64,000 bases of DNA. It comes from Acidimicrobiales bacterium. GTDB lineage: Bacteria > Actinomycetota > Acidimicrobiia > Acidimicrobiales > CATQHL01. Made by a program: the position numbers and the translations under genes. Shown here one piece after another: positions 36,801-63,610 of the stretch. The stretch lies in contig OY760933.1 in assembly GCA_963664235.1 (NCBI GenBank), forward strand, positions 76,503 through 140,502. Reading direction: 5' to 3'. Below the pieces are notes generated by a model. It was given only the letters and a program-made list of their open reading frames with translations. It was not told the origin of the DNA and did no database searches. Within the stretch, counting starts at the first letter, position 1. Every line of letters starts with the position of its first letter.

Positions 36801-36819
36801 CGCCGGTATCTTCCTGCCC

Positions 36820-37143
36820 GTGGATTCATGGCATCACGTCGGCGGCGTGTCGGACTTCGAAGTGGGTTGGCCTGGAGAGGTCCGGATCGGGTCCCAGCAG
36901 ATCGCGGTGCATCACACGCCCGAGGGTTTCTTCGCAACCGGGGCGATCTGCACGCACGAGGACGAGAGCCTCATCGACGGGCTGCTCGAGGGTTGCGAGA
37001 TCGAGTGCCCGAGGCACATGGCGATCTTCGACGTGCGAACCGGTGAGGTGCTGTGCGCGCCCGCAATCGTGCCGCTGCCGACCTATCCCTGCGAGGTCCG
37101 GGGCAGCGAGGTGTGGGTACTTGTTCCCGACGCGGGCGTCTAG
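36820..37143 (+). CDS. Rieske [2Fe-2S] ferredoxin
   Basis: Start set at GTG 36820, 20 nt after the upstream stop. The ~107-aa protein has CTHEDESL...CPRHMAIF (CxH...CxxH). Confidence 0.75.
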   Translation: MDSWHHVGGVSDFEVGWPGEVRIGSQQIAVHHTPEGFFATGAICTHEDESLIDGLLEGCEIECPRHMAIFDVRTGEVLCAPAIVPLPTYPCEVRGSEVWVLVPDAGV

Positions 37144-37262
37144 GCGCCCTCAGGCGGCTCTGGGTCCATCGACACGTCCGGGCAGGCGGGATACGCTCAC
37201 AGGCGTTGATCGGCCGCCTGCCGGGCCCGCGGCCGGCGCCTGACGAACGGGGGCATGGACTC

Positions 37263-38366
37263 ATGACAACAGCCCAGAGGTCCGAGCGTCGCCGCGACTG
37301 GATCCCTGAAGAGCCGGTCGACTTCGCGCCCGTCTTCGTCTGGCCCCCGCAGCCCAAGGCGCTGGCGAAGTACTTGTTCGGGTGGGGCGGCTTCCTGTGG
37401 CCGTGGCGGATCATCTGGCTCGGCCTGGCCATCGGTTCGTGGTACTGGCTGTCGCCGGACCTCGCTCAGGCCCGCAACCTCGAGGTGGGCTGGATCGCCA
37501 CGATCTTCGTCCGGAACCTGGTGTTCATATGGCTCGTCGCCGGCGGGATCCACTTGGTCCTGTACACGCTGAAGCTGCAGGGAACCGACCTCAAGCACGA
37601 CCCGAGATGGCTCTTCGTGGGCCGCCGCACGTTCCTCTTCAAGTCCCAGGTTCGCGACAACGTGTTCTGGAGCTGCGTGAGCGGCGTGACTCTCTGGACG
37701 GCCTGGGAGGTGCTGTTCTTCTACGGCTACGCGCACGGTTGGGTGCCGTACCTCGGGTGGTCCGACAACCCAGTGCTGTTCGTGCTGCTCTTCGGTGTGG
37801 TTGTTCTCTTCCGCAAGATCCACTTCTACTTCACGCACCGGCTCCTGCACTGGGGGCCGCTGTACCGCAGCGCCCACTACCTGCACCACAAGAACACCAA
37901 CCCGGGGCCGTGGTCGGGCATGGCCATGCACCCCCTCGAGCACCTCATCTACCTGAGCTCGGTGGTCATCCACTTCGTGGTGGCCTCGCACCCCGTCCAC
38001 ATGATGTTCAACATCTTCGAGACCGCCCTGGCGCCCGCGCACGGCCACACCGGGTTCCACGGCAAGACCGTCAAGGGGAAGCTGCCGGTGGGCGACTACT
38101 TCCACTGGCTGCACCACCGCTACTTCGAGGGCAACTACGGCGAGAACGTGATTCCCCTCGACCGCTGGTTCGGCACGTTCCGGGACGGCCCACCCGACGG
38201 CAGCCCCGGCGCACCCCTGCCGACCGAGCGCCACTACGAACTCGCCGGCGAGGATCCGCGCGGACGGGTCGCCGCCCGGGGCGCTCCCCCGCTTGCGCAG
38301 AATCGCCGGCCAGCCCTTCAAGCGCCTGCAATCTCCGGTGGAAATAGGCTGCATTTCACTGTCTGA
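37263..38366 (+). CDS. Membrane fatty-acid hydroxylase / sterol-desaturase superfamily enzyme
   Basis: Start taken at inner ATG 37263. It has several hydrophobic helices and the His boxes HRLLH, HYLHHK and HWLHHRYF. The last ~55 codons are low-complexity with poor third-position GC and may not be the native C-terminus. Confidence 0.75.
   Translation: MTTAQRSERRRDWIPEEPVDFAPVFVWPPQPKALAKYLFGWGGFLWPWRIIWLGLAIGSWYWLSPDLAQARNLEVGWIATIFVRNLVFIWLVAGGIHLVLYTLKLQGTDLKHDPRWLFVGRRTFLFKSQVRDNVFWSCVSGVTLWTAWEVLFFYGYAHGWVPYLGWSDNPVLFVLLFGVVVLFRKIHFYFTHRLLHWGPLYRSAHYLHHKNTNPGPWSGMAMHPLEHLIYLSSVVIHFVVASHPVHMMFNIFETALAPAHGHTGFHGKTVKGKLPVGDYFHWLHHRYFEGNYGENVIPLDRWFGTFRDGPPDGSPGAPLPTERHYELAGEDPRGRVAARGAPPLAQNRRPALQAPAISGGNRLHFTV
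38022..38094. repeat. Direct repeat A (internal piece of the hydroxylase gene), duplicated at 39758..39830
   Basis: By hand alignment there are 5 mismatches in 73 nt against 39758..39830. It encodes ...LAPAHGHTGFHGKTVKGKLP.... Confidence 0.8.
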
Positions 38367-38415
38367 TATACCTGTAATATGCCGGTCAAGTGCTGGGGCA
38401 CGCTAGACTGCGGGC

Positions 38416-39702
38416 ATGGAGTCGGCCGGCAACAGCGGTCCGCTCACACCCCATGGGTATCGGCAGCGGACCGCCGATGCGCTCATGACCTGGGCGTTGA
38501 GCAGTTCGCCCATTGTCGCGGTCGAGGGCGCACGGGGTGTGGGCAAGTCCTGGACCAGCCTTCGGCATGCTTGCAGCGAGGTGCGTCTCGACCGGGACCG
38601 CAGAGCTGCCGAAGCGGCGGCGTTGTGGCCCCGCAGAGTGCTCGAAGGCGCTCGACCGAGGCTGGTGGATGAGTGGCAGCTCGCCCCGGGTCTGTGGAAC
38701 GAGGCTCGGCACGTCGCGGACGCCGAGACGGGTCGAGGGTTGTTCATCTTCACGGGATCGGCGCATCCGCCCGACGATCACACTCGACATTCCGGCGCCG
38801 GCCGCGTGATGCGGGTGAGGATGCGACCGATGTCGCTCGCAGAGTCTGGAGAGTCGACCGGAGAGGCGTCGCTGGCGTCCTTACTCGACGGCGCCGACTG
38901 CTCCGTGGGCACACCTCAGGCATCGGACACCGACGTTGTGGAGGCGCTCTGCAGAGGCGGCTGGCCGAGGCATCTCACTATGGGCGTGGCGCAGGCACAG
39001 GCCCTGTGCCGCGCCTACCTCTCAGAAATCGCTCGCGTGGACATCGGAAGGTTGGATGGCGCAAGACACCGCCCCGAACGTGTCATGAGACTCTTGGAGT
39101 CGCTGAGCCGCAACACCGCAACCGCCGCCGCAGCATCCACTCTCGCCGGCGACATCGCCGGCGACGCTGCGCCGTCCCGCGACACCGTCTCGGACTACAT
39201 CGAATCCCTCAAACGGGTGTACGTGGTGGAGGACCTGCCTGCCTGGTCGGTCCACCTGAGGTCTCGTGCGCGGCTGCGACGTTCGCCCAAGCGCCATCTG
39301 GTGGACCCGTCGCTCGCCGTAGCGGTCCTGGGTGCCGGTCCCGAGCGACTCTGGCGAGATCCGGGATTCCTGGGCCAGGCGTTCGAGTCGCTGGTGGTGC
39401 GTGACCTACGGGTCTACGCGGACGCCAACGAGGCATCCGTCCACCAATACCGCGACAGCAACGGCCACGAACTCGATGCTGTGGTTCAACGCTTCGACGG
39501 CCGATGGCTGGCCGTAGAGGTCAAGCTCGGGCCGGGTGATCGCGTCGACGAAGCGGCCCGGTCGTTGAACGCCGCCTGCGAGCAAATCGACTTCGACCGG
39601 GTCGGCCCGCCCGCGAAGCGGCTGGTGATCACCCCGTCGGGGTACGGTTACGAACGGCCCGACGGCGTCACAGTCGTGCCCGTCACGTCGCTCGGCCCGT
39701 GA
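38416..39702 (+). CDS. AAA ATPase with DUF4143-type C-terminal nuclease-like domain (COG1373-like), paralog 1
   Basis: It has Walker A GARGVGKS, Walker B LVDEWQ and the C-terminal ...HELDAVV...WLAVEVK... (D...E.K). It is a paralog of 58234..59505 and has the same terminal ...GYGYERPDGVTVVPVTSLGP. Confidence 0.75.
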   Translation: MESAGNSGPLTPHGYRQRTADALMTWALSSSPIVAVEGARGVGKSWTSLRHACSEVRLDRDRRAAEAAALWPRRVLEGARPRLVDEWQLAPGLWNEARHVADAETGRGLFIFTGSAHPPDDHTRHSGAGRVMRVRMRPMSLAESGESTGEASLASLLDGADCSVGTPQASDTDVVEALCRGGWPRHLTMGVAQAQALCRAYLSEIARVDIGRLDGARHRPERVMRLLESLSRNTATAAAASTLAGDIAGDAAPSRDTVSDYIESLKRVYVVEDLPAWSVHLRSRARLRRSPKRHLVDPSLAVAVLGAGPERLWRDPGFLGQAFESLVVRDLRVYADANEASVHQYRDSNGHELDAVVQRFDGRWLAVEVKLGPGDRVDEAARSLNAACEQIDFDRVGPPAKRLVITPSGYGYERPDGVTVVPVTSLGP

Positions 39703-39706
39703 CAGA

Positions 39707-39757
39707 TCGGTTACGGAGCCCCGGCGGGCCTCAGATGCGGTGGACGCGCTCGGCGTT
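39707..39757 (-). pseudogene. Orphan copy of the 3' end (last 9 codons plus downstream tail) of the lactonase-like gene
   Basis: It aligns with 44813..44865 with 4 mismatches and a 2-nt indel by hand. It reads NAERVHRI* on the minus strand, against NAERVYRI* in the real gene. Confidence 0.75.
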
Positions 39758-39830
39758 ACCGCGCTCGCACCCGCGCACGGCCACACCGGCTTCCACGGCA
39801 AGACCGTCAAGGGGAAGCTGCCGGCGGGCG
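39758..39830 (+). pseudogene. Orphan internal fragment of the fatty-acid-hydroxylase gene
   Basis: It is a copy of 38022..38094 and begins at the base immediately after the lactonase fragment. Similarity is lost after ...gctgccggcgggcg. Confidence 0.75.
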
Positions 39831-39882
39831 GTTCGGTCTGCGGTGACTCCCGCCACGCCGAGGACAGGCAGTGCTCTGGGGG

Positions 39883-42814
39883 TCAACTCGGGGGGTCTTC
39901 GTCACCGAAGTTGAGCCAGCATTCGGAGGTGCCGTCGGGGCGCAGGCCGCAGGTGTGCCATCCGTCGGCGGTGAGGGCGGTGAGGGGGCCCGGTGGGACG
40001 CTGTATCGAATTCTGCTCACACTCCGGCCGCCACCGGGGCCGCTGCCCCAGCATTCGGGGGTGCCGTCGGGGCGCAGGCCGCAGGTGTGGAACCAGCCGG
40101 CGGCGATGTCGGTGAACGGCCCCGGCGGGGCGTCGGTCTGGCGGTAGAAGTTGTCGCCCCAGCACAGCACGTCGCCGCTGTCGCGCAGCGCGCAGGTGTG
40201 TTCGAAGCCGGCAGCGATGTCGGTGAGCGTGGTGGCCTCCAGCCACGCCGGCGGGCCGGCGGACTCGCCGGCCCATTTGGATCCCCAGCATTGGTAGCCG
40301 CCGCCGCGGCGGGTCGCGCAGCCGTGTTCACGGAACGCGTTCCAAACGCCGGTCTCCTCTCCCGAGCCGATGTCGAGGGCGGTGAACGGCCCCGCCAGGC
40401 GCAGTGTCACGGCGCTCTCCTCGTCGGCGGCGAACAGGTCCCAGCAGATCACCGATCCCGTGGCGCGGATGCCGCAAGCTTCGCGGCGACCCACGGCCAC
40501 GGAGGTGATAGCGCCGTCGGGCGCCGCGTACGGCTCCCCGTCGCGGATCTGCCAGCAGGACACGACGCCGCCGCGGCGGATCCCGCAGGCGGCCCACCAG
40601 CCGACGCTGACCGCCGCGAACACCCCGGCCGGTGGCGGGTGGTCGACGAGCCCCCCGTCGATCCCCGTGCGCCAACCCCAGCACGCCACGCTGCCATCAT
40701 CGCGGAGACCGCATGCGTGGTAGTGGCCGGCGTCGAGGGCCGCGAGCCCGCCGCGTGCCGTGTACGACTGCAGCCAATCCGCCATGGGGACTTCGCGGAA
40801 CCGCCGCCAATTGCGCCACGGCCGCTTGTTCCTATCGGAGTAGTCAAGGAACCCTGCCCAGAAGTGAAGCTGATCGACGGTCCTGTAGCCGCCGGGCGCG
40901 CCGGCGCGCTCGTCGGGCAGGCCCGCTCCCGGTGGCCACCCGTCGGCCCAGCACTCCACGGTGCCCGCCGGGCGGATCCCGCAGTAGTGATCCCCTCCGG
41001 AGCTGACGACCGTGAACGGCCCCTCCGGCAGCGCGTCGGAGCCCGATCTCGTGCAGTCGACCGTGCCGCCCGCGGGCTGGCAGGAGTCCATAGCCCACCC
41101 GCGCACCACAGGCAGCACCTCGCCGCTCCCCGCCGACGGGCCGCTGCGGTCGCGCCGGCATACCAATTCCCACGTGGCACGATTCCCGCACTCGTAGTCC
41201 CCGAGGCGAATCGTCCGGAATAAGACCCGACTTCGCTCGGCGTCGTGGACGGGCGTCCGCGCCGACAGCGGGTTCCGACCGGCCATCTCCCTGCTCAGGC
41301 CCCAGCACACCGCCTCGCCGGCGGGGCGCAAACCGCACGCGAAGCGATAGCCGGCGCGGATCGCCGTGAACCGCCCCGGCGGCGGGTGGGTCGCCCACCA
41401 GCTACTCGACCCCCAACACGCCACCTCGCCGGCGGGACGCAGACCGCACGTCAAGCTCGCGCCGGCGCTGAGCGCGGTGAACCGCCCCGGCGGCGGCTCG
41501 GTCGCGCCGTTCTCGTCGTAGCCCCAGCACGCCGCCTCGCCGGCGGGGCGCAAACCGCACCCGTGATACTGCCCCATGCTGATCGACGCGAACTCGCCCT
41601 CCGGCGGCGACCAACCCAGCGGCACCGCCCCCCAACACACCACCTCGCCGGCGGGACGCAGACCGCACGTGTGACTGGAGCCGGAGTCCAGCGTCACGAA
41701 CAGCCCCGCCGGCGGGCGATACCCCACCTCCGCGTCGTTCCAACACGCCAACGACCCGTCGACGCGAACCCCACAGATCGAACCGGGGAAGACCAGAGGC
41801 GATCCATGCTCGAGCAGCGCCGGCACGGCAGCGATCGCCACGAACGGCCCGCTCGGCGCCGGCGCCATCCCCCACCCCGGGCACGGCGCGGAAAAATAAC
41901 CCGTGCAATCCCACGCCAGCTTCTCCCTGCCCCAGCACGCCACCTCCCCGCCGGTTCGCACCCCGCACGTGAACTCCATCCCCGTCGCGATCGCCGAGAA
42001 CGAACCCTCCGGAGGCGACGCCTGCCCCGCGTCGTTGGCACCCCAACACTCCACCGACCCCCCAGCCCGGAGCCCACAACTGTGCGAAAAGGAGACGCTG
42101 ACCGCCGTGAACACGCCCCCCCGCAGCACCGGCGCCGAATCGCGCGACCAACACACCAGCATGCCCCCGACACGGATCCCGCACGCGTAGGGCCCCCATC
42201 CCACCGACACCGCCTCGAACACGCCTCCCGGCGGCGCGAATTCCTCAACGCCCGGACCCCAACACGCCAACGATCCCCCGGCACGGATCCCGCACGCGTG
42301 CTCGTCGCCCACGCTCACCGCCGAGAACGACCCCGCCGGCGCCGACCACTCCCCCCCTTCCACCGCCCCCCAACACACGAGCGCGCCACCGACACGAACC
42401 CCGCACGCGACCCGCGGGCCCACACTCACAGACACGAACCGCCCGTCCGGCGGCATGTCACGACGATCCTCGCTCCATCCCCCCCCAACACGCCACCTCA
42501 CCACCCGCCCGCAACGCACACCCCACCCGGCCGCCCAGACTCACCGACACAAAACCCTGCCCCGCACCGTCACTCGCCGGCAGCGCCTCCGGCGCCGAGC
42601 CACTGCCCGCCGCGACAGAACCCCCACCGTCCGCCGCCGGCGCGCCGGGAGCCTCCACCGCCGGCGCGCTGGGAGCCTCCACCGCGTCGCCGCGGACCGA
42701 CGAAACCGCCACATCGCCCTCCGAAGCAACAGAACACGATGCGGCCGCGAGGGCGACGACCAGCAGCGCGATGCCGGTCAGGCGCACCCCTCCCCCCCGG
42801 CGGCGACTCATCAC
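39883..42814 (-). pseudogene. Secreted RCC1-repeat (beta-propeller) protein with a possible lipobox, interrupted by a +1 frameshift in a G8 tract
   Basis: ORF 42458..42814 carries the signal peptide MMSRRRGGGVRLTGIALLVVALAAASC and the first blade. ORF 39883..42519 carries many blades with the pattern F..V..G..H.CG.R..G...CWG. The two join at the homopolymer 42479-42486, and G7 would restore ...EVACWGGWSEDRRDMPPDGRF.... Confidence 0.8.
42479..42486 (-). repeat. Homopolymer G8 (C8 on the plus strand) at the RCC1 frameshift
   Basis: Counted directly: ...catCCCCCCCCaaca... on the plus strand. Confidence 0.9.
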
Positions 42815-42996
42815 GAAACCCCGCCCGGCACCCGAGTCATCGACGCCGGGCGTGCACCGGCCTGCCGCGGCGAATCGTCGAATCCGGTCGAGGAGGGAGA
42901 GGACATGCCTGCGGAAACCCCAGCCGCCGGCTCGTTCAGCGGGTCGTCGTCGCTGACGTTCAGCCAGCAGTCGTCTTCCCCGCTCGTCGACAGCGG

Positions 42997-43140
42997 TATG
43001 AGAACTTCGATCTCCGATACAGACAGATATTCATATATATTCGATCTGTTGTCCAATATTATACAGCTACTTGATCGTATTGAAGAATATCATTATTGTT
43101 CAGGTGCTATATTGAGATCCTGATACTTTCTAGATTTCAC
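42997..43140. other. AT-rich patch in a GC-rich context, with an imperfect palindrome at 43023-43049
   Basis: The patch reads ...gtatgagaacttcgatctccgatacagacagatattcatatatattcgatctgttgtccaatattatacagctacttgatcgtattgaagaatatcattattg.... The arms acagat and atctgt flank an AT core. It lies upstream of the RCC1 gene start and next to the IS3 scar. Confidence 0.7.
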
Positions 43141-43171
43141 GCAGGTTGTGGTGTTCGTCGGATTCACGCCG

Positions 43172-43325
43172 TCAGCTTGCTTGATTTCGGGCACCGGTGG
43201 TGGTGTGACGGGTCTCGTATTCCACGGGCGTGTGCATGTCGAGTGGAGAGTGTCGTCGTTGCCGGTCAGTGACCTGCCGCCCCAAGAACTCGGGGCAGGC
43301 CAGAGCCTCCAATACCCGGGGTCGT
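43172..43325 (-). mobile_element. IS3-family transposase (rve integrase domain) C-terminal remnant
   Basis: The minus-strand translation is *RPRVLEALACPEFLGRQVTDRQRRHSPLDMHTPVEYETRHTTTGARNQAS*. The RRHS.L...P.E(Y/F)E tail is typical of IS3 OrfB C-termini. It is bounded upstream by an in-frame stop, so only about 50 codons survive. Confidence 0.6.
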
Positions 43326-43414
43326 TAACCGTGACCTGGGCACTCACAGGAACCCATACCGCGCTAGGGATCCAACCACTGGAGGGGGACGGTTCGCCGT
43401 GAGGGTCGCCGGAC

Positions 43415-44686
43415 CTACCGAGGCCTGCGCGGGACGCTCCTGATCGGCTCCGAGACGAGGGTGTCTCCCCCCGGGCTCGCGAGCTGCCGTTCCAGCGCCG
43501 TGAACTCCTCGATGACTTCGGGGGCCTCGAACGCACGGTTTCGCCGCCCGAGGGTCACCTGCGCAAGAATGCCGGCTCCCACGAGCCGCTCGATCGCCTG
43601 GTTGGTCGCCTGGAACGACCGTCCGATCAACTCCGAGGCCGTCGTGGCGGTCAGCAAGGGCGCGCCCGGCAATGCGCGAACGAGCAGATCAGCTGCCGAG
43701 TCGCGGCGCACTGACCCGAGCCGCTCTCGCCAAGAGTCCTGGAGCGTACGCACCTGCTCCTCGAAGCGCCCGGCGTCGGTGGCGGCCCGCCGGCATGCGC
43801 TCGCGAACAGCGCGATCCAACCGTTGAGACCGGCGCGGGCTTGCTCGGATTCGGGCGCGCCTTCATAGCGGGTCCCCATGAGTCCACCCACGTAGTCGCG
43901 AGGCCATGTGGCGAGGATCAGCGAGACCGGGGGAAGGACGCGCGGCGCGAGTCCGCGCCGTCGCAACACCAGGTGAATCAGCGCACGCCCCGTGCGCCCG
44001 TTCCCGTCGACGAACGGATGGATCGTCTCGAACTGTGCGTGGGCAATGGCCGCCTGCGCGACCGCTGGCAGGGAGTCGTCATTGCAGAACGAGGCGAGGT
44101 CCGCCACCAGCGCATCGACCAGGTCGTGCGGCGGTGGCACGAAGGCCGCCGAACACGGGTTGTAGTCGCTGCCGCCGATCCAGTTCTGGACGGCACGGGT
44201 GCGGCCGCCGTGGCCGGCGAGACGCGTACCGGCGAGCAGGCGGCGATGCGCCTCCTTCACGATCTCCACGGTGATCGCCCCCCTCGGCGGCACCGCCTCG
44301 GTGGCCCAGAGCATCGCCTCGATGTTCCCGAGCACCTCCACGGCGGTGATGTCGCTCGGGTCCTCGCCGAGTTGGCGGGCGGCCTGGGCACGGAGGAGCC
44401 GGCGGCCCCCCACCTCCAAACCTTCGATCCGGGAAGAGGCCACCGCTTCGGCGCGAAGCAGCAGCCGGGCCAGCGCCTCGGTGCCGGCGAGCGCGCCCGC
44501 CGTGGCGTCGAGCCGGGCGAGTGCCGCTTCGGCATCGGCGACATCGGCCGCAACATCGCCGTCGAGCAAGAAGCGCCGACCGACGAGGGGGTCGGGGATA
44601 TAGACCTCGTAGTCGCAAGGACGGCGATCGCGGCGTGTGAGGCCACGATCGTCGCCCGCCCAGTTCCGCGTTTCCAACCGAGCCAT
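43415..44686 (-). CDS. Fic/DOC family protein (Fido domain) with an N-terminal inhibitory-helix motif
   Basis: It has the Fic motif HPFVDGNGRTGRA, and an N-terminal SSRIEG that matches the (S/T)xxxE(G/N) inhibitory motif. Start set at ATG 44686, preceded by GGAAGG. The track start at 44704 is a TTG. Confidence 0.8.
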   Translation of the reverse strand: MARLETRNWAGDDRGLTRRDRRPCDYEVYIPDPLVGRRFLLDGDVAADVADAEAALARLDATAGALAGTEALARLLLRAEAVASSRIEGLEVGGRRLLRAQAARQLGEDPSDITAVEVLGNIEAMLWATEAVPPRGAITVEIVKEAHRRLLAGTRLAGHGGRTRAVQNWIGGSDYNPCSAAFVPPPHDLVDALVADLASFCNDDSLPAVAQAAIAHAQFETIHPFVDGNGRTGRALIHLVLRRRGLAPRVLPPVSLILATWPRDYVGGLMGTRYEGAPESEQARAGLNGWIALFASACRRAATDAGRFEEQVRTLQDSWRERLGSVRRDSAADLLVRALPGAPLLTATTASELIGRSFQATNQAIERLVGAGILAQVTLGRRNRAFEAPEVIEEFTALERQLASPGGDTLVSEPIRSVPRRPR

Positions 44687-44697
44687 CTCGACCTTCC

Positions 44698-44726
44698 TAT
44701 TCAAGGATACAATACAACCTTGAATA
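44698..44726. promoter_or_regulatory. Perfect 9-bp inverted repeat just upstream of the Fic start (candidate operator)
   Basis: TATTCAAGG-atacaatacaa-CCTTGAATA lies 11 nt upstream of ATG 44686 and abuts the RBS. Confidence 0.4.
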
Positions 44727-44812: not shown

Positions 44813-44865
44813 TCGGTTAACGAGCCCCGGCGGGCCGCTCAGATGCGGTAGACGCGCTCCGCGTT
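44813..44865. repeat. Direct repeat B (lactonase 3' end plus downstream tail), duplicated at 39707..39757
   Basis: See 39707..39757. Confidence 0.8.
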
Positions 44866-45726
44866 CTTGGAGAACAGGGCCTCCTGCTCGTCGCGGCTGA
44901 AGTCCGAGATGATCTCGCGGTAGGCCGCCACGACGTCGGCGTAGCTGGAGTACATCCTGTCCACCGGCCAGTTGGTGCCGAAGAACGAGCGCTCGACGCC
45001 GAAGGCCTCGATGCAGCCCAGCACCCAGCGACCGATGGAGTCGGTGGTCCAGTTGGTGCCGGCCATCTGATGGCCCATCCCCAGCCCGGAGATCTTGATG
45101 ACGCAGTTCTCGGCCTCGGCGATGGCGTCCATGCCGGCCCGCCAGTTGGCGAAGTACTCGTCGTCGATGGCCTGCGGGAAGCCGGCGTGGTCGAGGATCA
45201 TCACGATGTTGGGATACTTCTTGGCCAGGGCGCCGGCCTTGGCCATGTTCTCCCAGGTGCAGTCCAGGTCATAGACCAGGTTGTACTTCTCCAGCAGGGC
45301 GTAGCCGCGGTGGAAGTTGGGGTCCACCAGGTAGTCGCCCTCGGCGAAGTCTCGAAGGCCCCGGAACAGCGGGAACTCGCAGTGGCGGGCGATGGTCTCC
45401 TCGACGTCGGGGCTCTGCATGCGGGCGTCGCCGGTGATTCCATGCGGCCAACCCGTGGCCTCGGCCATCTCCGACAGCCAGCGGGTCTCCTCCACCGGGT
45501 CGGCCGTGCCGATGGCGGCCTGCACGTGCACCGCCTTGGTCACCCCGCAGCCCTCGATGTCGGCGAGGTACTCGTCGGGGGTGTAGCGCCTCATGTCCTT
45601 GAGCGGCCGGATATCGCCGAGCTGCGGGTGGACGAAATCGTCCTCCAGCCACACCCACTCCAGCGGCGGGTGCGGGCGGTCCCAGTAGTGGATGTGAGAG
45701 TCCACGAAGGCCAAGTCGCTGCTCAT
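44839..45726 (-). CDS. Amidohydrolase_2 family sugar lactonase-like enzyme (L-fucono/rhamnono-lactonase type)
   Basis: Start taken at inner ATG 45726, preceded by AGGAGG. Motifs seen are VDSHIHYW, ...ILDHAG... and ...FGTNWPV.... It is the last gene of the sugar ABC operon. Confidence 0.7.
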   Translation of the reverse strand: MSSDLAFVDSHIHYWDRPHPPLEWVWLEDDFVHPQLGDIRPLKDMRRYTPDEYLADIEGCGVTKAVHVQAAIGTADPVEETRWLSEMAEATGWPHGITGDARMQSPDVEETIARHCEFPLFRGLRDFAEGDYLVDPNFHRGYALLEKYNLVYDLDCTWENMAKAGALAKKYPNIVMILDHAGFPQAIDDEYFANWRAGMDAIAEAENCVIKISGLGMGHQMAGTNWTTDSIGRWVLGCIEAFGVERSFFGTNWPVDRMYSSYADVVAAYREIISDFSRDEQEALFSKNAERVYRI

Positions 45727-51479: not shown

Positions 51480-51602
51480 GGGGCTCTCCCTGTCGATTGG
51501 CTCGGGGAAGTATAGGTGTGACCCCAAGGTCGGCGGCCCGGGGGCGTGCCTCGCCGGAACGCATTCTTGGATGCATCTCAGGGGGGAATAGGATCGTCTG
51601 CA

Positions 51603-52739
51603 GTGCATGAAGAACCCTCGTGGACAATGGGGATCGAGGAGGAATATCTCATCGTCGAGCGGGAGACCGGCGCCCTGGTGGCGCAACCCCCCGGCCTGAT
51701 CGAGAGAGTCGCCGACCTGCGGCACGGCCTGGTGGGCCGCGAATTGTTCGACTCCCAGGTCGAGATCGGGACAGTCGTCTGCGAGGACGTCAGACACCTC
51801 CGCGCCGACGTGGGGCTGCTGCGGATCGCGGTGACCGAGGCCGCCGAGGAGTTCGGCCTGGCACCCATCGCGGCATCCACGCACCCCTTCGCCAAGTGGG
51901 AACAGCAGCAGTTCACCGACAACGAGCGCTACCGGGCCCTGGCTCAGGACCTGCAGTACACGACCCGCCGCCTGGTGATCTCGGGGCTCCACGTGCACGT
52001 GGGGATCGAGGATCCCGAACTGCGGATCGACCTGATGGGACAGGTGGCCTACTTCCTGCCGTATCTGCTGGCGCTGTCCACGTCGTCACCGTTCTGGTCG
52101 GGCCAGGACACGGGCCTCAAGAGCTACCGCACGTCGGTCTTCCACGCCGTTCCACGCACCGGCCTGCCCGAGAAGTTCGAATCCTGGGCCGAGTTCGAGC
52201 GCCACACCGACGTGCTCATCGGGGCGGGGATCATCGAGGATTCCAGCAAGATCTGGTGGGACGTCCGCCCGTCGAAGCGCTACCCCACCCTCGAGCTCCG
52301 GGTGACGGACCTGCCCACCCGGATGGAGGACACCATCGCCATCGCCGCCACCTATGTGTGCGTGCTGCGGATGCTATGGAGGCTGAAGAGAGAGAACCAG
52401 CGCTGGCGCGACTACGCCAACTTCCTGATCGCCGAGAACATCTGGCGGGCGCAGCGCTACGGCACCACGGGCACGCTGTTGGACCTGGGCACCGGTGAGA
52501 TGGTCCCCTTCGCGGAATTGGCCGCCGAGATGGTCGAAGTGGTGCGGCCCGACGCCGAGGCCCTCGGTTGCACCGAGGAGGTGGAGCACATCAGGACCAT
52601 CTGCGAGCGGGGCACCTCTGCCGACCGTCAATTGGCCGTATACCGGGACGCCCTCAAGCAGGACGCGACGGAGGACGAGGCTCTGAAGGCCGTTGTGGAT
52701 GCGCTCATCGCCGACACGCTCGCCCCTCCCAGCAGGTAG
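51603..52739 (+). CDS. Carboxylate-amine ligase, glutamate-cysteine-ligase family 2 (YbdK-like)
   Basis: It has ...WTMGIEEEYLIV... and ...SGLHVHVGI.... The start is uncertain (GTG 51603 or ATG 51627). Confidence 0.7.
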   Translation: MHEEPSWTMGIEEEYLIVERETGALVAQPPGLIERVADLRHGLVGRELFDSQVEIGTVVCEDVRHLRADVGLLRIAVTEAAEEFGLAPIAASTHPFAKWEQQQFTDNERYRALAQDLQYTTRRLVISGLHVHVGIEDPELRIDLMGQVAYFLPYLLALSTSSPFWSGQDTGLKSYRTSVFHAVPRTGLPEKFESWAEFERHTDVLIGAGIIEDSSKIWWDVRPSKRYPTLELRVTDLPTRMEDTIAIAATYVCVLRMLWRLKRENQRWRDYANFLIAENIWRAQRYGTTGTLLDLGTGEMVPFAELAAEMVEVVRPDAEALGCTEEVEHIRTICERGTSADRQLAVYRDALKQDATEDEALKAVVDALIADTLAPPSR

Positions 52740-57239: not shown

Positions 57240-57394
57240 CAGGGGACCTCCCGTTTCCCTTTCCGGCGACTCGGTGACGCCGGTATCGATACGCGGGGCC
57301 GGGATACCGCCCGATCCCCGGCGGCACAGAGTAGGCGGTGGCCGAACATCCGGGGATAACGTGCCTCCGACGCAGGCAGTCCCGGACGGTACAC

Positions 57395-58165
57395 ATGAGC
57401 ACAGACAGCGCAAACGCTGCGCCGGCGAGCGGCCCGACGGGGCCGGCGTTCGGCGGCTTCGAGGGAAGGGTGGCTGCGGTCACCGGCGCCGGCAGGGGCA
57501 TCGGGCGCGCCGTCGCCGACGCCCTCGTGGCCAAGGGCGCCCACACCGCCTATCTGGACCTCGCAGAGCCCGAACCGCCCCTCCACACCGGTGAGCGCGG
57601 GCTCTTCGTGCACTGCGATGTGACCGACGAGGCCTCCGTCGACACCGCCTTCACCACCGTCGAGGAAACCTGGGGCACGGTGTCGATCCTGGTCAACAAC
57701 GCCGGGATCTTCTGGATCCGGCCGCTGGCCGAGACCAGCCTCGAGGCGTGGAACCAGATGCTGGCGGTCAACACCACCGGGGCGTTCCTCTGCGCGAGGC
57801 GCGTCCTGCCAGCAATGCGAGCCCAGCGGTACGGGCGTCTCGTCGCCCTCGGCTCGAGCGCCGGCAAGACCGGCGGCGCCAAGGAGACTGCGGCCTACGG
57901 CGCCTCGAAGGCCGCAATCATGGCGCTGGCCAAGTCCATCGCCACCGAGTACGCCGCCGACGGCATCACGTCCAACGCGCTGGCGCCCGCGCTGATCAAC
58001 ACCGACATGGTGGCCGGCATCGCCGACCTGGCCGGTCGGATACCCGTGGGGCGTCTCGGCGAGCCGGCCGACATCGCCGCCGCCGTCGTGTTCCTGGCGA
58101 GCGAGGATGCAGGGTTCATCACCGGCGAGGTGATGGACATCAACGGCGGATTCCTCATCGACTGA
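57395..58165 (+). CDS. Short-chain dehydrogenase/reductase (SDR)
   Basis: Start taken at inner ATG 57395. Motifs seen are VTGAGRGIGRAV, NNAG and YGASKAA. Confidence 0.85.
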   Translation: MSTDSANAAPASGPTGPAFGGFEGRVAAVTGAGRGIGRAVADALVAKGAHTAYLDLAEPEPPLHTGERGLFVHCDVTDEASVDTAFTTVEETWGTVSILVNNAGIFWIRPLAETSLEAWNQMLAVNTTGAFLCARRVLPAMRAQRYGRLVALGSSAGKTGGAKETAAYGASKAAIMALAKSIATEYAADGITSNALAPALINTDMVAGIADLAGRIPVGRLGEPADIAAAVVFLASEDAGFITGEVMDINGGFLID

Positions 58166-58233: not shown

Positions 58234-59505
58234 CTAGGGACCGAGTGCTGTGAGGGGAACGACGGTGGTGCCGTCGGGACGTTCGTAGCCGTAGCCGGTG
58301 GCCGTGATGATCAGCAGCTTGGACGGCTCGGACGTGCGCGAGGTGTCCACCTTGTGGCGCAGGCGCAGCAGCGACCGGGCGGCTCTCTCGATGCCCTCGT
58401 CCGCGCCGAGCTTCACTTCCGCGGCGACCCAGCGCCCGTCGCGTGCTTCGACAATGGCGTCGACTTCCAGCGCGTCGCTGTCGCGGTAGTGGTAGACCGA
58501 GGCTCCGCCGGCCCCGCCGTAGATGCGCAGGTCCCGCACGACCAGCGACTCGAACAGGAATCCCAGCGCCTCCAGGTCGCCCAGCAGCAGCTGGGGACCG
58601 GCGGCCAGGGCCGCGACGGCCAGTGAGGGGTCCACGAAGTGTCTCTTGGCCGAGCCTTGCAACGTGGCCCTGGACCGCAGGTGCGAGCGCCACGCAGGAG
58701 CGTCCTCCACGATGAACAGTCGCTCCAGGGACCGCAGATACTCGGTGGCCGTGGTGCGGTTGAGGGGCCGGTCACCGGCGGCCTCGGCAGCGAGCCTGGA
58801 GAAGGATGCCGTCGTGGCCACGTTGCGTGCGATGGAGGCGATCAACCTGGCCACCCCGGCCGGGTCGCGCGCCACCCCGTCCACCGCGCTGACGTCGGTC
58901 CGGCAGAGTTCCGAGATGTAGCCGTCCAGGAAGAGTTGCGCGTCGGGCACGGACCGGCCAAGCAGGCGAGGCCAGCCGCCCCGGCAGAGCGCGTCGAGCA
59001 TGTCCCTGAAGTCGGCCTCCGGGCGGCGGGCCGCCACGGGCGCCCCCTCCAGCAGCGCCGCCAGCGACACGTCACCGGTGGACTCCCCTGTCTCGAGCAG
59101 CGACATGGGTCTCATCCGCACCCGGGCGATGCGCCCGGCACCGGAGTGCCGCGTGATGTCGTCCGGCGGGACCGCAGAGCCTGTGAGGATGAACCGCCCG
59201 GTGCGGTGCCCCTCGTCAGCGGCGTGGCGGATCTGGTTCCAGACCTCCGGTGCCAACTGCCACTCGTCGAGGAGACGAGGCTCTCCGCCCTCCAGCACCA
59301 GGCCGGGCACCAACGACACCGACCTGCGGGCGTTGAGGTCTCGATCGAACAGCACCTCACTGCGGGCGAAGCTGCGCCCCGTCCACGTCTTGCCGCACCC
59401 CTTGGGGCCCTCGATGACGACCGCGGGCATCGCGGCGAGCGCCCGTGTCACCGCGCCGTCTGTCACCCGCAGCTTGTAGCCAGCGGGCGTGAGCGTCTCC
59501 GGCAT
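58234..59505 (-). CDS. AAA ATPase with DUF4143-type C-terminal domain (COG1373-like), paralog 2
   Basis: RBS GGGAGG. It has Walker A GPKGCGKT, Walker B LLDEWQ and C-terminal ...LEVDAIV...WVAAEVK.... It aligns over its full length with 38416..39702. Confidence 0.75.
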   Translation of the reverse strand: MPETLTPAGYKLRVTDGAVTRALAAMPAVVIEGPKGCGKTWTGRSFARSEVLFDRDLNARRSVSLVPGLVLEGGEPRLLDEWQLAPEVWNQIRHAADEGHRTGRFILTGSAVPPDDITRHSGAGRIARVRMRPMSLLETGESTGDVSLAALLEGAPVAARRPEADFRDMLDALCRGGWPRLLGRSVPDAQLFLDGYISELCRTDVSAVDGVARDPAGVARLIASIARNVATTASFSRLAAEAAGDRPLNRTTATEYLRSLERLFIVEDAPAWRSHLRSRATLQGSAKRHFVDPSLAVAALAAGPQLLLGDLEALGFLFESLVVRDLRIYGGAGGASVYHYRDSDALEVDAIVEARDGRWVAAEVKLGADEGIERAARSLLRLRHKVDTSRTSEPSKLLIITATGYGYERPDGTTVVPLTALGP

Positions 59506-59794
59506 GTGGCCTCCCGGTCCGCCGTCGGACCTCCGCCGATAAATCCTACAGTATCCGGAGAGAGCAACCTACTACTTATGGAGTTGCCGACCGACAACTA
59601 TCGAAGATACTGGCCTACAGATGCGGCGGCCGCCCCAAGTCCCAATCAGCCCGGCCGGAGAGCGTCCGAACAGATCGCCGTCGCCCGCCGGACGCTCCTA
59701 CCCGGCTACCAGGGCCGAGGAACCTCGATCCGCGTCGATTCCTGAGCGTGCCCTGGCCACGACCGCGTGCGCCTGCTGCTCGACCAGAACCGGC

Positions 59795-60943
59795 TCACCG
59801 GTGGTTCCCGCTGGGCGGCGAGTGGGCGCCGGTAAGGGAGAGCAGGCGCTCCCTTATGGCCGGACCTTCCGCCGCGAGGTCCACGGTGGCAAACCGGATC
59901 CGGTGCCCCTGAATGGTGGCCGCCTCGTCGACGTGACGCCCCACGGACGGATGTAACAGCAGCCCTGAGGCGTGCTGCGACATGGGATCGTCCGAGCGTT
60001 CCTGGGATCGCAAATAGGCGTACATCTGGTATAGGTACCCGCTTCGCAGCTTCTCGTCCCCATGCTGGTTGGGGCTCAGGACGTGAGTGAACTTCGTGTC
60101 GATGACGAGCCGCTGGTGGACCAGCCGCTCTGTTCCGGCGGGCGCTTCCAGGACGATGTCGGTCTGCATGGAGGGGAGGATCTCGGCCATTCCAGGGGTC
60201 GCACCCTCGACCTGCCAGTGGATTCGCCTCCCCGTACCCACCTCCCAGCCGTGAGGAGAGAGGACGGTCTTGTAGAACCCCCCGACGGCGGCCTCGAAGA
60301 GGGTTCGGGCCCGAACGTCGTTGCGATCGGGTGAGGACAGGTGGATCGTTCCCGGGTCCTCCGTCGGCAGCCTCAGCCGGAAGGCGAGTTGGGCCGCCGC
60401 CAGCATCTGCCGGTCCCCCGCGTTGGTTCGACCGGTCGCCTCCGGTGTCGTGGTCCGGTTCCGGTATTGAATCGACGAAGTCTCGCTGCCAACGCCGGCC
60501 CGTTCGAGCGCCGCGGCGCCGCGGCGGCAGCGCCGCACCAATTCCTCGTTGTGGACGGTCCTGGTGAGTTCCCGGAGGGCCACCCTGACGAACCGGTTGC
60601 GTGGCGTGTCGGTGGTCAACTCGTCGAACGTGCATGCGATCCTGCCGCGCTGAAGCAGGCTGCGGCGCTCGGTGCGCAGAAGGTCCATCCGCCCCCGGAC
60701 CCGGGTGAGGTCGGCCTGCCGGCGCTGAAGCTCGGAACTCAGATTGCGGCGCAGGCGACGCTGAACCGCGTGGACCAGGATCTCCGCCACGAGGTCCGGA
60801 ATGTCGTCGGGATTCTCCTCGGCGGCATACCGTCGACTGCCGGGGATCTCACGGAACAGCCGGGAGGCGTACAGCAGCAGCAGCCAGACGTTGCGCACCG
60901 GGATCCTGCCGACGAAGGCACCGTCGCCGGCCGAGTCGCTCAC
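59795..60943 (-). CDS. mcrC: McrC-like restriction endonuclease subunit
   Basis: GTG 60943 forms a GTGA overlap with the mcrB stop. The McrC pattern includes the PD-(D/E)xK-like core ...TDIVLE...LVIDTKF.... The upstream part of ORF 59795..61552 overlaps mcrB out of frame. Confidence 0.7.
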   Translation of the reverse strand: MSDSAGDGAFVGRIPVRNVWLLLLYASRLFREIPGSRRYAAEENPDDIPDLVAEILVHAVQRRLRRNLSSELQRRQADLTRVRGRMDLLRTERRSLLQRGRIACTFDELTTDTPRNRFVRVALRELTRTVHNEELVRRCRRGAAALERAGVGSETSSIQYRNRTTTPEATGRTNAGDRQMLAAAQLAFRLRLPTEDPGTIHLSSPDRNDVRARTLFEAAVGGFYKTVLSPHGWEVGTGRRIHWQVEGATPGMAEILPSMQTDIVLEAPAGTERLVHQRLVIDTKFTHVLSPNQHGDEKLRSGYLYQMYAYLRSQERSDDPMSQHASGLLLHPSVGRHVDEAATIQGHRIRFATVDLAAEGPAIRERLLSLTGAHSPPSGNHR

Positions 60944-62765
60944 GGTGTGAGGCCTAGGAGCAGCTTCTCCCCCGCGGACTCGGCCCTCTTCGGATCGTCG
61001 AACCAATACTCCCCGAGGAGAGGCGTGATCTCGGTCTCCACGACCTGCCTGAACCACTGCTGCGGATCGGGAATCTCCACGCCGGGTGGCGGCGTGACCA
61101 CGCTGTGGCCGACCCGGAAGTGCGCACCGAGGACGGCATCGTCGGCGATGGCAGCGTTCAACTCGTTCAGGCGGCTCTCGATGTCCCGCAGGAACGCCTC
61201 CTCGATCCCGCACTGCTCGCTGACCCATGTCCGCCATGTGTCTCCGAGCGTCGGTTCGAGGTCCACGAACGCGAACCGCCGGCGCAGCGCGAAGTCCACG
61301 AGAGCCAGCGAACGGTCGGCCACGTTCATGGTGCCGATGACGTAGAGGTTCGGCGGGATGTGAACACGCTCGGCGGAGTGCCTGGGGTAGCTCAGAGCGA
61401 TTGCCTCGGTGGGAATGCGCTTGTCGGCCTCGAGCAGGGTGAGCATCTCGCCGAAGATCTGGGCGGGGTTGCCCCTGTTGATCTCCTCGATGACGAGCAC
61501 GTAGGCCTCGCCCGGGTCGCCCGCTGCAGCCTCGACCGCTTCGAGGAAACACCCGTCACTGACGATGTCGTCGACGGAATACGGCGTGCCGTCGTCCGCC
61601 TCGGCCCGCCGTTCACCGTCCGACTCGGTCTGCCTGTCGTCCTCCGCCATTTTGCCCTCAGCGACTCGCTCAGGCGCTACCGGTTCCTCCGGCGGCGCCC
61701 GCTCGGCGGTGAAGGCAGTTGCCGTCAGCTCGGGGATGGAATGAATTCGCGCACTCTCGTCCATCAACACCGCTTCGAGCTTCGCCCCAGGGAGAGATAA
61801 GCCGCGCCATCGAGCCTGCGCTTGTCGACGTCGATTCTCATCTCGCCGGTGATGAACGACGATGAAGGCCCATCCAGCGACGGATAGTGCCAAGACCTCG
61901 CCCAGTAGAGTCCGATGGTCAGCATCGATCCGACAAAAGGTCGGGCAAACGCTGCATCGAAGGAATCCGTGAATCTCTGCCGACTGGTTGAGTCGGCGCT
62001 GTCCGCATACTCGAGTGCATCGGAAAATACCCGCCAAAGGACATCGATGTGATCCGCGGAGCGCTTGTTGGCAAACGGGAAGAACCACGAACGGCGGTTA
62101 TCCAGTACGGGAATCCCCTCGAAAGACTCCGGCAAACGTGCCGTGACGCCGATGGAATCAGCCAGGCTCTTGGCGATTCTCCGGCGATTGTCATTGGTGA
62201 TCCCGCGGTTGAACAGGCCGAAGGTGGTAAAGGGACAGATGTCCTGGAGGGGCCCGGAGGAACCATCGGCAAATCTGTCCTGCACGCTGAGCGGGACTTG
62301 AAGCTTGGACAACTCGTGAATCGCCGAGATCAGAGGCTCACGGTCATCGCGGTAGGCAAGAGGGTGATCGGCGAACGCTGTGTAGAAGGTGGACCAAGCG
62401 AACCGATCAGCATCCTGTGGCCGATCACCGTAACTGGCCACCCAGAATGGACGGTTGCGGAATCCGTCGATGTCCTGGGGCTCGTCCTCGAACGCGAATC
62501 TGAGTAGCTCAGTGCCCCATCGTTTTCCGGACACGACCTTCCACATGGTGCGCATGTTCGTGAAGAAGTACCACTCGCGGGGAGGATCGACCGGCGTCCA
62601 CTCGACCAGGAGGCTGCGCCCCTCCCCGGGGTTGTCTCTGACGGTTCCGGTGGCCTTTACCGCCATCACCGCCACGAAGTGCCCGCGGTTGTCGAACGGC
62701 AGACCGTGCTTCCTCGTGTACGCCGACTTCAGGGCGACCCGGTCGCCGGGCCGAATCGACTTCAC
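60940..62765 (-). pseudogene. mcrB: McrB-like GTPase gene, frameshifted and lacking the Walker A region
   Basis: The N-terminal domain ORF 61764..62765 ends ...AAYLSLGRSSKRC*. The AAA+ part continues in another frame (ORF 60940..62088) with VLVIEEINRGNPAQIFGE, IGTMNVADRS and ALRRRF. No GxxGxGK(T/S) motif occurs anywhere between them. Confidence 0.7.
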
Positions 62766-63052
62766 CTCCTCGATTTAGCGATCCGTATAGCCGTGCTCCC
62801 AGACGCCATCTCGAACGAACCGCTCAGACTGGTCGTCGACTCCGCCGAACGACGCGCCGAGGAACCACGTGTAATCGACACCGGCACCGCCACGACCTGA
62901 AACCACGTCTCACACCTCGCCCCTCGATCATGATGCAACGAGGGAATCCTAAGCATCCCAATGTCCCGCCGCAGAATGGATTCGAGAGGTCTACCAGCGA
63001 CGGGTTTGCGACGCGGTCCGATGGCCTGGGTGTCGGACCGCAGCCGATGTGG

Positions 63053-63062
63053 CACAATTGTG
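63053..63062. promoter_or_regulatory. 10-bp perfect palindrome CACAATTGTG directly upstream of the antitoxin start (candidate operator)
   Basis: It is a perfect palindrome and ends 3 nt before ATG 63066. Confidence 0.35.
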
Positions 63063-63065
63063 GCC

Positions 63066-63332
63066 ATGACAACTGAATCGCTGCGGGTCGTGAGGGATCG
63101 GTTCTCGGAGTTCATCGAGCGGGTGCACGCACACCACGAGCGGGTCGTCGTCACGCGCAACGGCTCGCCGGCCGCCGTGTTGATGAGCCCTGAGGACCTC
63201 GCGTCGCTCGAGGAGACCCTGGCGATCCTCGGCGACAGCGACGCGCTCCGGGAACTCGCCGAGGCGCATCGCGCCCACGCCGAGGGCGACGTGGTGCGCG
63301 GCGTCGACGCTGTCAGGGCGCTCAGGCCTTGA
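63066..63332 (+). CDS. Phd/YefM-family antitoxin
   Basis: Start taken at inner ATG 63066. The 88-aa protein has the typical opening ...LRVVRDRFSEFIERVHAHHERVVVTRNGSPAAVLMSPEDLASLEETL.... Confidence 0.8.
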   Translation: MTTESLRVVRDRFSEFIERVHAHHERVVVTRNGSPAAVLMSPEDLASLEETLAILGDSDALRELAEAHRAHAEGDVVRGVDAVRALRP

Positions 63333-63610
63333 CCGCAGGTGAGCCGTACCAGATCATCGTCGCGTGGCCTGCTGCCAGGACCATCGCAGAAGAACTCCCG
63401 GCATCGGTGGCCGCAGCCGTCGTCGAGTTGATAACCGGGCCCCTGCTGGAGAATCCTCGGCGATTGGGGGTGGCGCTGCGCAACGAGTTGGAAGGACTGT
63501 GGAGCGTCCGCCGCGGCACCTACCGCCTCGTCTACCGGATCGACGATGCCCGGCGTGAGGTCCTCATTCTCCGGGTCGGCCACCGCCGGGACGTCTACCG
63601 GTCCGACTGA
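63329..63610 (+). CDS. RelE/ParE-family toxin
   Basis: TTG 63329 overlaps the antitoxin stop as TTGA. The C-terminus ...LWSVRRGTYRLVYRIDDARREVLILRVGHRRDVYR is typical of RelE/ParE. Confidence 0.75.
   Translation: MTAGEPYQIIVAWPAARTIAEELPASVAAAVVELITGPLLENPRRLGVALRNELEGLWSVRRGTYRLVYRIDDARREVLILRVGHRRDVYRSD

Follow-up and report, generated by a model that had tools for sequence, protein, structure and literature searches.

We analysed a 64,000-nucleotide stretch of an Acidimicrobiales genome (positions 76,503 to 140,502 of contig OY760933.1, assembly GCA_963664235.1; hereafter the window) that carries two diverged genes, copy 1 and copy 2, each coding for an AAA_14 ATPase domain followed by a DUF4143 domain. 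Both match PDC-S01, a single-gene candidate for phage defence, both are under purifying selection, and each lies in a small site between metabolic genes at which related genomes carry alternative contents. We put a probability of roughly 0.55 on the reading that they encode stand-alone, ATP-controlled nucleases of the PDC-S01 family that undergo birth and death in small hotspots and most likely serve as an innate defence against invading foreign DNA. They are not a new kind of system but new members of a known family, for which a defence role is the leading hypothesis and the best inference from the sequences, one already in the literature through the listing of PDC-S01.

Gene identity, selection and predicted fold

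The two open reading frames (ORFs) are as follows:

38416..39702 (+), copy 1: 428 amino acids (aa), ATG start; AAA_14 plus DUF4143, predicted ATPase-nuclease of the PADLOC PDC-S01 type.
58234..59505 (-), copy 2: 423 aa, ATG start; AAA_14 plus DUF4143, predicted ATPase-nuclease of the PDC-S01 type.

A preliminary description of this sequence had reported the two ORFs as paralogs that align end to end, and they do so with 230 of 419 residues identical (55%), no gaps and a BLASTP E value of 2e-157. The motifs quoted there are all present in both: Walker A as GARGVGKS in copy 1 and GPKGCGKT in copy 2, Walker B as LVDEWQ and LLDEWQ respectively, a nuclease core of the form E(L/V)DA(V/I)V...W(L/V)A(V/A)EVK, and the C-terminus GYGYERPDG(V/T)TVVP(V/L)T(S/A)LGP. 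The profiles proposed there for checking the family both score above their Pfam gathering thresholds in each protein, AAA_14 with 39.4 bits in copy 1 and 44.1 in copy 2 (threshold 27) and DUF4143 with 114.5 and 111.5 bits (threshold 28.1), the latter over residues 209-371 and 203-366, C-terminal to the ATPase. Each protein has the complete AAA_14 plus DUF4143 (COG1373) architecture, that is, both domains with their catalytic residues intact. In an alignment of 79 homologs, G38, G43 and K44 of Walker A, D85 and E86 of Walker B and the adjacent W87 are invariant, as are the PD-(D/E)xK residues E324, D354 and E368, with K370 conserved in at least 90%.

Comparison with orthologs gives ratios of nonsynonymous to synonymous substitution rates (dN/dS) of 0.13-0.19 for both genes, which shows that they are under purifying selection and therefore that both are functional genes. 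The GC content at third codon positions (GC3) is 0.78 in copy 1 and 0.89 in copy 2, host genes being at about 0.89; the lower value of copy 1 fits its being an accessory gene. No third family member or remnant was found within the window. A scan for sigma-70 promoters and terminators around both genes returned nothing informative, and look-ups of the exact proteins found no record for copy 1 and a single 1.4-kb contig for copy 2.

The PADLOC model for PDC-S01 (PDLC04790) matches copy 1 at E 4.7e-63 and copy 2 at E 1.5e-65 over about 360 of its 422 profile positions, an assignment judged on E value and profile coverage without PADLOC's own cut-offs. DUF4143 was classed as a PD-(D/E)XK family in 2012 (PMC3424549). 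PDC-S01, a single-gene phage defence candidate, derives from genes embedded in BREX, DISARM and type I restriction-modification loci (bioRxiv 10.1101/2024.01.29.577857); it reportedly ranks fourth by frequency among defence calls in prokaryotes, and the same source, with validation still pending, describes the protein as a fusion of an ATPase with a PD-(D/E)xK domain (PMC12988326). An NCBIfam search found no model matching either copy, and the earlier view of a poorly characterised ATPase-nuclease family is borne out. The family is large: among 1.84 billion cluster representatives, a phmmer search matched 8,219 clusters at E<=1e-3, of which 895 pass E<=1e-30. We reject a phage origin for it, as matches occur in 5 of 50,697 phage records, all of them metagenomic fragments, and in 141 of 72,556 plasmids at no more than 44% identity.

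Among the matches listed, the closest homologs come from metagenome-assembled genomes of the Acidimicrobiia Candidatus Poriferisodalis, Poriferisocius and Aldehydirespirator. This lineage holds at least three clades of the subfamily, about 55% apart, together with distant members at 25-32%; the contig that carries the window is 3.49 Mb long. Copies also cluster within the lineage. Among the loci from related genomes used for comparison, which we denote by L-numbers, L004 has three copies within 7 kb and L091 has two plus a remnant within 4 kb, and a second family member lies within 10 kb at about one locus in eight. Because family copies cluster in this way, two copies in 20 kb are ordinary here, and the recurrence that had been singled out as remarkable reflects expansion of the family in this lineage.

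The AlphaFold2 model of copy 1 (predicted local distance difference test, pLDDT, 91.2; predicted template modelling score, pTM, 0.92) is confident, and its secondary structure is in keeping with an alpha/beta AAA+ core at residues of about 20-145, a helical lid at about 150-235, a winged helix at about 240-300 and an alpha/beta nuclease core at about 305-428 that holds the E...D...ExK residues. Searching this model against the PDB with Foldseek found no close relative. The top match was the P. abyssi Walker ATPase 2qen (E 1e-5, template modelling score, TM, 0.41-0.48), followed by ORC/Cdc6, RuvB, CED-4, clamp loaders, the cA4-activated nuclease Card1, SAMD9 and Avs4. The BFVD library of viral folds gave generic AAA+ matches only.

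On this architecture, each gene would encode a self-contained single-chain ATP-dependent nuclease. Its N-terminal ORC/Cdc6-like AAA+ module contains both Walker motifs and an arginine loop, RHSGAGR, that is conserved, and is followed by a helical lid, a predicted winged-helix DNA-binding domain and a C-terminal PD-(D/E)xK restriction-endonuclease-like domain (E324, D354, E368-x-K370). We propose that nucleotide-controlled oligomerisation on DNA may switch the nuclease on, and that diversification of the paralogs would mirror differing specificities.

Gene turnover at the two sites

The preliminary description placed each copy where core metabolism gives way to accessory DNA. The flanks it gave are present: copy 1 has an FA_hydroxylase gene upstream and a 73-nt fragment of the same gene downstream, and copy 2 has an SDR gene on one side and, on the other, partial McrC and McrB ORFs followed by a PhdYeFM/ParE pair. 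Both copies also lie in truly variable DNA, since relatives carry empty-site alleles and alleles with alternative contents.

The gene order around copy 1 is Rieske, FA_hydroxylase, copy 1, hydroxylase fragment, an RCC1-repeat gene (-), Fic (-), Amidohydro_2 (-) and an ABC transporter, and four states of the interval can be told apart. It is empty in L096, where the hydroxylase and amidohydrolase genes are convergent and about 90 nt apart; it contains copy 1 as the sole insert in L085-87 (protein 89% identical); it contains SoFic and copy 1 (98% identical) in L001 and L002; and it contains copy 1, RCC1 and SoFic in the window. The features of the site in the window are:

37047..38366 (+), FA_hydroxylase gene: the core gene that borders the copy 1 hotspot; C-terminus rewritten by read-through into the insert.
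38022..38094 (+), upstream arm of a direct repeat, within the part of the hydroxylase gene that is still intact.
38265..38415 (+), copy 1 leader: moves with the ORF; homologous to the L001 leader (from L001 position 5875); joined to the hydroxylase at the microhomology GGATCCGC.
38265..43380 (no strand), inserted block: 5.1 kb at the hydroxylase 3' end, relative to L001, L085 and L096.
39707..39757 (+), partial repeat R (amidohydrolase 3' end): 51 nt, beginning 4 nt past the copy 1 stop codon.
39758..39830 (+), downstream arm of the direct repeat: the 73-nt hydroxylase fragment, 93% identical to 38022-38094.
43381..43402 (+), displaced last codons and stop of the hydroxylase.
43415..44704 (-), SoFic: Fic_N plus Fic protein, PADLOC SoFic match at E 3e-71; co-resident of the copy 1 hotspot.
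44813..44904 (no strand), single hybrid copy of repeat R (amidohydrolase 3' end), at the SoFic/amidohydrolase junction.

In L001, direct repeats of 94 nt (91.5% identical), which correspond to the amidohydrolase 3' end, stand on either side of copy 1, and the right-hand repeat begins 4 nt past the stop codon. Copy 1 in the window stands 5 kb from this position. The left side of the hybrid segment at 44813-44904 matches the left repeat and its right side the right repeat, and this segment is therefore the empty site for the L001/L002 position of copy 1. The 51-nt piece of R next to copy 1 in the window is baggage that stems from an insertion site of the L001 type. The block at 38265-43380 entered a few codons short of the hydroxylase stop and consists of the copy 1 cassette, debris of the repeats, the gene for the RCC1-repeat protein (39883-42519, -) and a further 0.86 kb that is unassigned; the junctions at the copy 1 site show the microhomologies GGATCCGC and CGCGCTC. 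The hydroxylase ORF runs on for about 34 codons within the copy 1 leader (38265-38366), its own last codons now being 5 kb away.

Copy 1 is 96.3% identical to its L001 counterpart, against 88.8% for the adjacent Rieske and hydroxylase tract (36110-38264), on both sides of which identity to L001 is 94-96%. This suggests that the tract may have been imported or recombined, ending at the copy 1 junction. A 36-mer across the junction of copy 1 and the hydroxylase fragment found no match in JGI metagenomes, the window arrangement thus being without independent confirmation, and this junction could conceivably be an assembly chimera. The RCC1-repeat protein has 878 aa, and its gene has internal DNA repeats with a 111-nt period and a strong local GC skew; RCC1-like proteins also occur near family genes in L021 and L089. 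In L085-87 there is, 3 kb upstream of copy 1, a 205-aa DUF4143-only fragment (L085 6457-7074; 57% identical to the L004 paralog), and its position is a third insertion site within 5 kb, at which the window holds no such sequence.

The order around copy 2 is transketolase, a xylose-isomerase-like gene, GFO/IDH/MocA, SDR, copy 2 (-), the partial McrC and McrB ORFs, and PhdYeFM with ParE. The features beside copy 2 are:

57338..58165 (+), SDR gene: the core gene that borders the copy 2 hotspot.
59506..59633 (-), copy 2 leader: conserved with L092; a remnant is left in L091.
59630..62978 (-), decayed McrC-like plus McrB-like block: 3.35 kb, absent in L091 and L092.
62961..63610 (+), PhdYeFM antitoxin and ParE toxin pair: common to L091 and L092; stable part of the copy 2 islet.

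In L092 (SDR 95% identical), an ortholog of copy 2 (94% identical in amino acids) directly adjoins the antitoxin with no McrBC block, and the 388-nt spacer to the SDR carries the remnant ends of another cassette. In L091 (SDR 90% identical), another member of the family, with no more than 28% identity, fills the slot next to the SDR. Behind it come 126 nt left over from the 3' end of copy 2 (94% identical) and a remnant of the leader; beyond these lie ParE, a third member of the family, an rve transposase and further content. More distant marine relatives have a core gene within about 25 nt after the SDR and no copy 2. These alleles show the copy 2 site to be a hotspot of serial gain, loss and paralog replacement. 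The remnants in L092 (10775-11162) and L091 (12274-12542) are deletion derivatives of cassettes, which have lost the body but still hold the 3' end of the ORF and some of the leader, and the cassette reduced to a remnant at either of these loci is intact at the other. As to the McrBC ORFs of the window, the McrB-like one has only the C-terminal half of AAA_5, together with Walker B, the N-terminal half with Walker A being missing, the McrC-like one matches profile positions 52-160 of 318 only, and their GC3 is 0.70-0.75. Elsewhere in the window, a gene for a YbdK-type carboxylate-amine ligase (ORF 51627-52739, +; PDB 1r8g, E 8e-45) forms a 1.29-kb single-gene insertion (51489-52775) that is absent in L091, L092 and L085 and has no flanking direct repeat.

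In this lineage the genes act as accessory promoter-plus-ORF cassettes that are repeatedly gained, lost and swapped for divergent paralogs at small hotspots between the 3' ends of metabolic genes, and the co-residents of these hotspots are other conflict genes, namely SoFic, toxin-antitoxin pairs and McrBC remnants. The preliminary description had read the recurrence at island borders as a hint of a role in defence or in the mobility or maintenance of such islands. The second of these, that the proteins mark or maintain island borders, through integration, stabilisation or partition of the adjacent accessory DNA, is now largely refuted and can be given next to no credence. It is true that each window copy is the first gene past a core gene, and that the copy 2 ortholog of L092 occupies the same first position. 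However, edge position carries no weight because the islets are tiny (about 1-6 genes, of which the copies are cargo), because the position differs among relatives and because many homologs are solitary. Copy 1 is the sole inserted gene in L085-87 and lies at the opposite edge in L001 and L002, and a rough estimate of the chance that both copies would stand at an edge, for islets of 4-6 genes, is about 1 in 6, (2/4)x(2/6). Most of the family stands as lone inserts among ordinary metabolic genes, where there is neither an island nor a conserved neighbour, and the McrBC and RCC1 blocks come and go independently of the gene. Neither an integrase nor an att-like conserved site is present, and a scan of the window found no tRNA, so that the islands are not tRNA-anchored. 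What stands of the earlier interpretation is the poorly characterised family, the variable DNA and, as leading hypothesis, a role in defence; what finds no support is the meaning of the edge, island maintenance and the significance of recurrence within 20 kb.

The same allelic comparisons bear on a chromosomal housekeeping or regulatory role, such as DNA repair, replication control or ORC-like DNA binding, for which the variable context would be incidental. The fold matches to ORC/Cdc6, RuvB and clamp loaders would suit such a role, as would purifying selection and neighbours that are mostly metabolic. We nevertheless think it most improbable, given presence and absence among close relatives, the same-site swap for 28%-identical paralogs, the lack of an NCBIfam equivalog and the multiple divergent paralogs per genome; comparison of the window flanks with 90 loci also found no synteny beyond the species group.

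The preliminary description had called for a survey of ortholog neighbourhoods. Orthologs at 73-86% identity to either copy occur in unrelated contexts, several of them beside toxin-antitoxin genes, with PIN, TacA and ParE among the neighbours in relatives. Over a wider range, 70 homologs taken from many phyla have 136 nearest neighbours, which fall into 157 Pfam families with at most three members each. A conserved partner gene is therefore rejected, as no Pfam family recurs among these neighbours, and the lack of an obligatory partner agrees with PDC-S01 being a single-gene system. PADLOC-positive neighbours include PDC-S01 itself, methyltransferases, BrxA, SoFic and others, but the survey found no clear excess of them over positions 6-7 genes away. 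At one of the loci, L005, a CRISPR array (2000-4700; 29-nt repeat GTGTTCCCCGCCCGTGCGGGGGTGAGCC, 61-nt period, at least 43 repeats) that looks type I-E-like lies about 5.5 kb from a gene of the copy 1 clade, and a fragment of a DDE_3 transposase lies directly upstream of that gene.

Flanking repeats and the mode of insertion

We compared the 700 nt upstream with the 700 nt downstream of 84 family genes and scored direct repeats above 36 bits, using as controls 410 intervals of equal size shifted by 3-7 kb. Direct repeats flank 14 of the 84 family genes against 4 of the 410 controls (Fisher p = 1.1e-8, odds ratio 20). Their length is 20-499 nt and their identity 81-100%; they are locus-specific and occur exactly twice per locus, and those that can be identified correspond to the 3' end of a gene next door (amidohydrolase, AcrB, molybdopterin dehydrogenase and another DUF4143 gene). 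The right arm often starts 0-10 nt past the stop codon and the left arm stops some 100-700 nt short of the start, and from where the two arms fall the inserted unit is the leader plus the ORF. The repeats indicate recent recombinational insertion of promoter-plus-ORF cassettes. At L048, a pair of genes for a FitA/VapB-like antitoxin and a PIN toxin (VapBC) is duplicated around a family gene (9231-9871 and 11348-11988; 499 nt, 94% identical).

One of the control matches is a CRISPR array, and two enclose a lone accessory gene that belongs to another family: a baeRF-family gene (L035 6522-8367) and a Kelch-repeat gene (L065 6577-8476), flanked by direct repeats of 54 and 63 nt respectively. Repeat-flanked insertion is therefore not unique to DUF4143 genes, and the pattern looks like the product of recombination that serves young accessory genes in general, not of enzyme-specific transposition. 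We propose that the cassettes would enter by general recombination driven by homology or microhomology, leaving target duplicates, with no dedicated recombinase apparent. This may happen by Campbell-type integration of a circle with homology to the target, or by homology-facilitated illegitimate recombination. In the L001 repeat pair, the element-proximal halves have about 6 and 2-3 differences and the other halves about 1 and 1-2, and these small numbers would mildly favour an incoming copy of the target over simple duplication. A transposon, insertion sequence or integrative element is rejected, since the 96 family genes share no leader or terminal motif, the repeats are locus-specific and range from 20 to 499 nt, and neither a recombinase domain nor a tRNA is present.

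It is against this pattern that the main rival to the defence reading has to be weighed. The genes could be selfish, self-mobilising nuclease cassettes, either homing-endonuclease-like or a new transposable unit, in which the ATPase-nuclease cuts its target and promotes its own copying into new sites, yielding long target duplications, any benefit to the host being secondary. The roughly 20-fold enrichment of flanking target duplications fits this account, and so does the compact unit of leader plus ORF that ends at the stop codon. So too do the presence/absence and positional polymorphism between strains about 96% identical, the insertion of paralogs beside or into each other (L077, L091, L004), and the contrast between copy 1 and the hydroxylase tract in identity to L001 (96.3% and 88.8%), which resembles co-conversion or recent transfer. 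The weak adjacency to defence genes, and the place of PDC-S01 outside the listed protective candidates of the one published phage assay, would also be in keeping with it. However, a spreading cassette sits badly with the lack of near-identical copies within a locus or genome sample, where paralogs are 25-57% identical. A search of the 96 family genes found no leader or terminal motif in common, matches being confined to close orthologs, and the insertion sites share no target sequence. The locus-specific repeats of variable length and the microhomology junctions are as in host recombination, and the same repeat-flanked pattern surrounds the unrelated baeRF and Kelch genes. We therefore regard a selfish origin as unlikely.

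A bolder form of this idea, which we hold to be a long shot, is that the AAA_14-DUF4143 genes are autonomous single-gene mobile elements whose encoded ATPase-nuclease makes the break and drives copying or Campbell-type integration. Were this so, leader plus ORF would land beside gene 3' ends and leave imperfect target duplications of 20-500 nt, a mode of mobility unlike that of known transposons, integrons or homing endonuclease genes, and it would help to explain how the family can be abundant despite its absence among the protective candidates in the defence assay.

The defence reading and comparison with known systems

Several observations count against a role in defence. In the one published assay, a representative of PDC-S01 was set against T4, T5 and T7 in E. 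coli B and was not listed with the four protective candidates (bioRxiv 10.1101/2024.09.26.614923). Nearest neighbours are mostly metabolic or transport genes, and with a within-locus control and counts per family, PADLOC-positive genes were not clearly commoner in adjacent positions than 6-7 genes away; this weak adjacency agrees with the remark of the PADLOC authors that PDCs associate only weakly with other defence systems (bioRxiv 10.1101/2024.01.29.577857). The likeness of the copy 1 fold to ORC and STAND proteins is weak (TM 0.2-0.5), and sequence and profile searches of the PDB yielded nothing meaningful, neither a solved structure nor a characterised homolog.

The value of the locus lies in the natural experiment that it offers, with four allelic states at one hotspot and three at the other, a same-site paralog replacement and a signature of recent cassette-like insertion that is clear in statistical terms. 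It could show whether the family consists of immune genes under birth and death or of a selfish nuclease over-called by defence-finding tools, and the outcome would affect how censuses of defence systems are read. Interest would rise only if the cassette-insertion signature proved to be driven by the protein itself.

The nearest known system is PDC-S01, with which copies 1 and 2 have in common the two-domain architecture of ATPase and PD-(D/E)xK domain, the single-gene unit and the weak association with defence genes. There is no structural difference between them, the copies being lineage-specific subfamilies (at least three clades 55% apart) in Acidimicrobiia of the sponge-symbiont type. Membership says little about mechanism. 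McrBC and other systems couple a nucleoside triphosphatase (NTPase) to a PD-(D/E)xK nuclease, and copies 1 and 2 likewise join an AAA+ NTPase to such a nuclease; by analogy, oligomerisation on DNA under the control of ATP or GTP before cleavage is a plausible working model. Unlike McrBC, the copies are one polypeptide and not two, their ATPase is AAA_14 (ORC/Cdc6-like) and not of the AAA_5 McrB type, and they have neither an N-terminal reader domain for modified bases nor sequence similarity to McrB or McrC. McrBC-type identity is rejected, as neither copy has an AAA_5 or McrBC Pfam match and the nearby McrBC ORFs are separate and decayed.

STAND and Avs-type sensors (the Avs, SAMD9 and CED-4 folds) offer a second parallel, that of an NTPase switch licensing a fused nuclease together with birth and death of paralogs, and CED-4, Avs4 and SAMD9 are among the Foldseek matches, though at TM of only 0.2-0.4. 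The copies differ from these in their size of about 425 aa, in lacking a C-terminal repeat or sensor domain, in having the nuclease at the C-terminus and in an ATPase nearer to 2qen and ORC/Cdc6 than to NACHT or NB-ARC. Membership of this group is rejected, since no NACHT, NB-ARC or sensor domain is found by Pfam, the 428-aa protein ends in the nuclease domain, and the CED-4 and Avs4 matches have TM 0.3-0.4. With the Pyrococcus abyssi Walker-type ATPase PABY2304 (2qen), which is itself uncharacterised, copy 1 has in common the arrangement of ATPase, lid and winged helix (E 1e-5, TMt 0.48), the match being partial (TM normalised to the query 0.41) and sequence identity 13%. An ORC/Cdc6 replication initiator is likewise rejected, as the match is at the level of fold only (E 6e-5, TM 0.23-0.25), no PDB chain matches in sequence and the genomic position is variable.

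Hotspots of defence genes between conserved core genes have been described for E. coli, Pseudomonas and Vibrio genomes. Both sites in the window resemble these in having conserved flanks with alternative cargo (none, one or several genes) and swaps among conflict genes. They differ from them in being tiny (0-5 kb) and free of integrase or tRNA anchors, and in bearing microhomology junctions and long imperfect target duplications.

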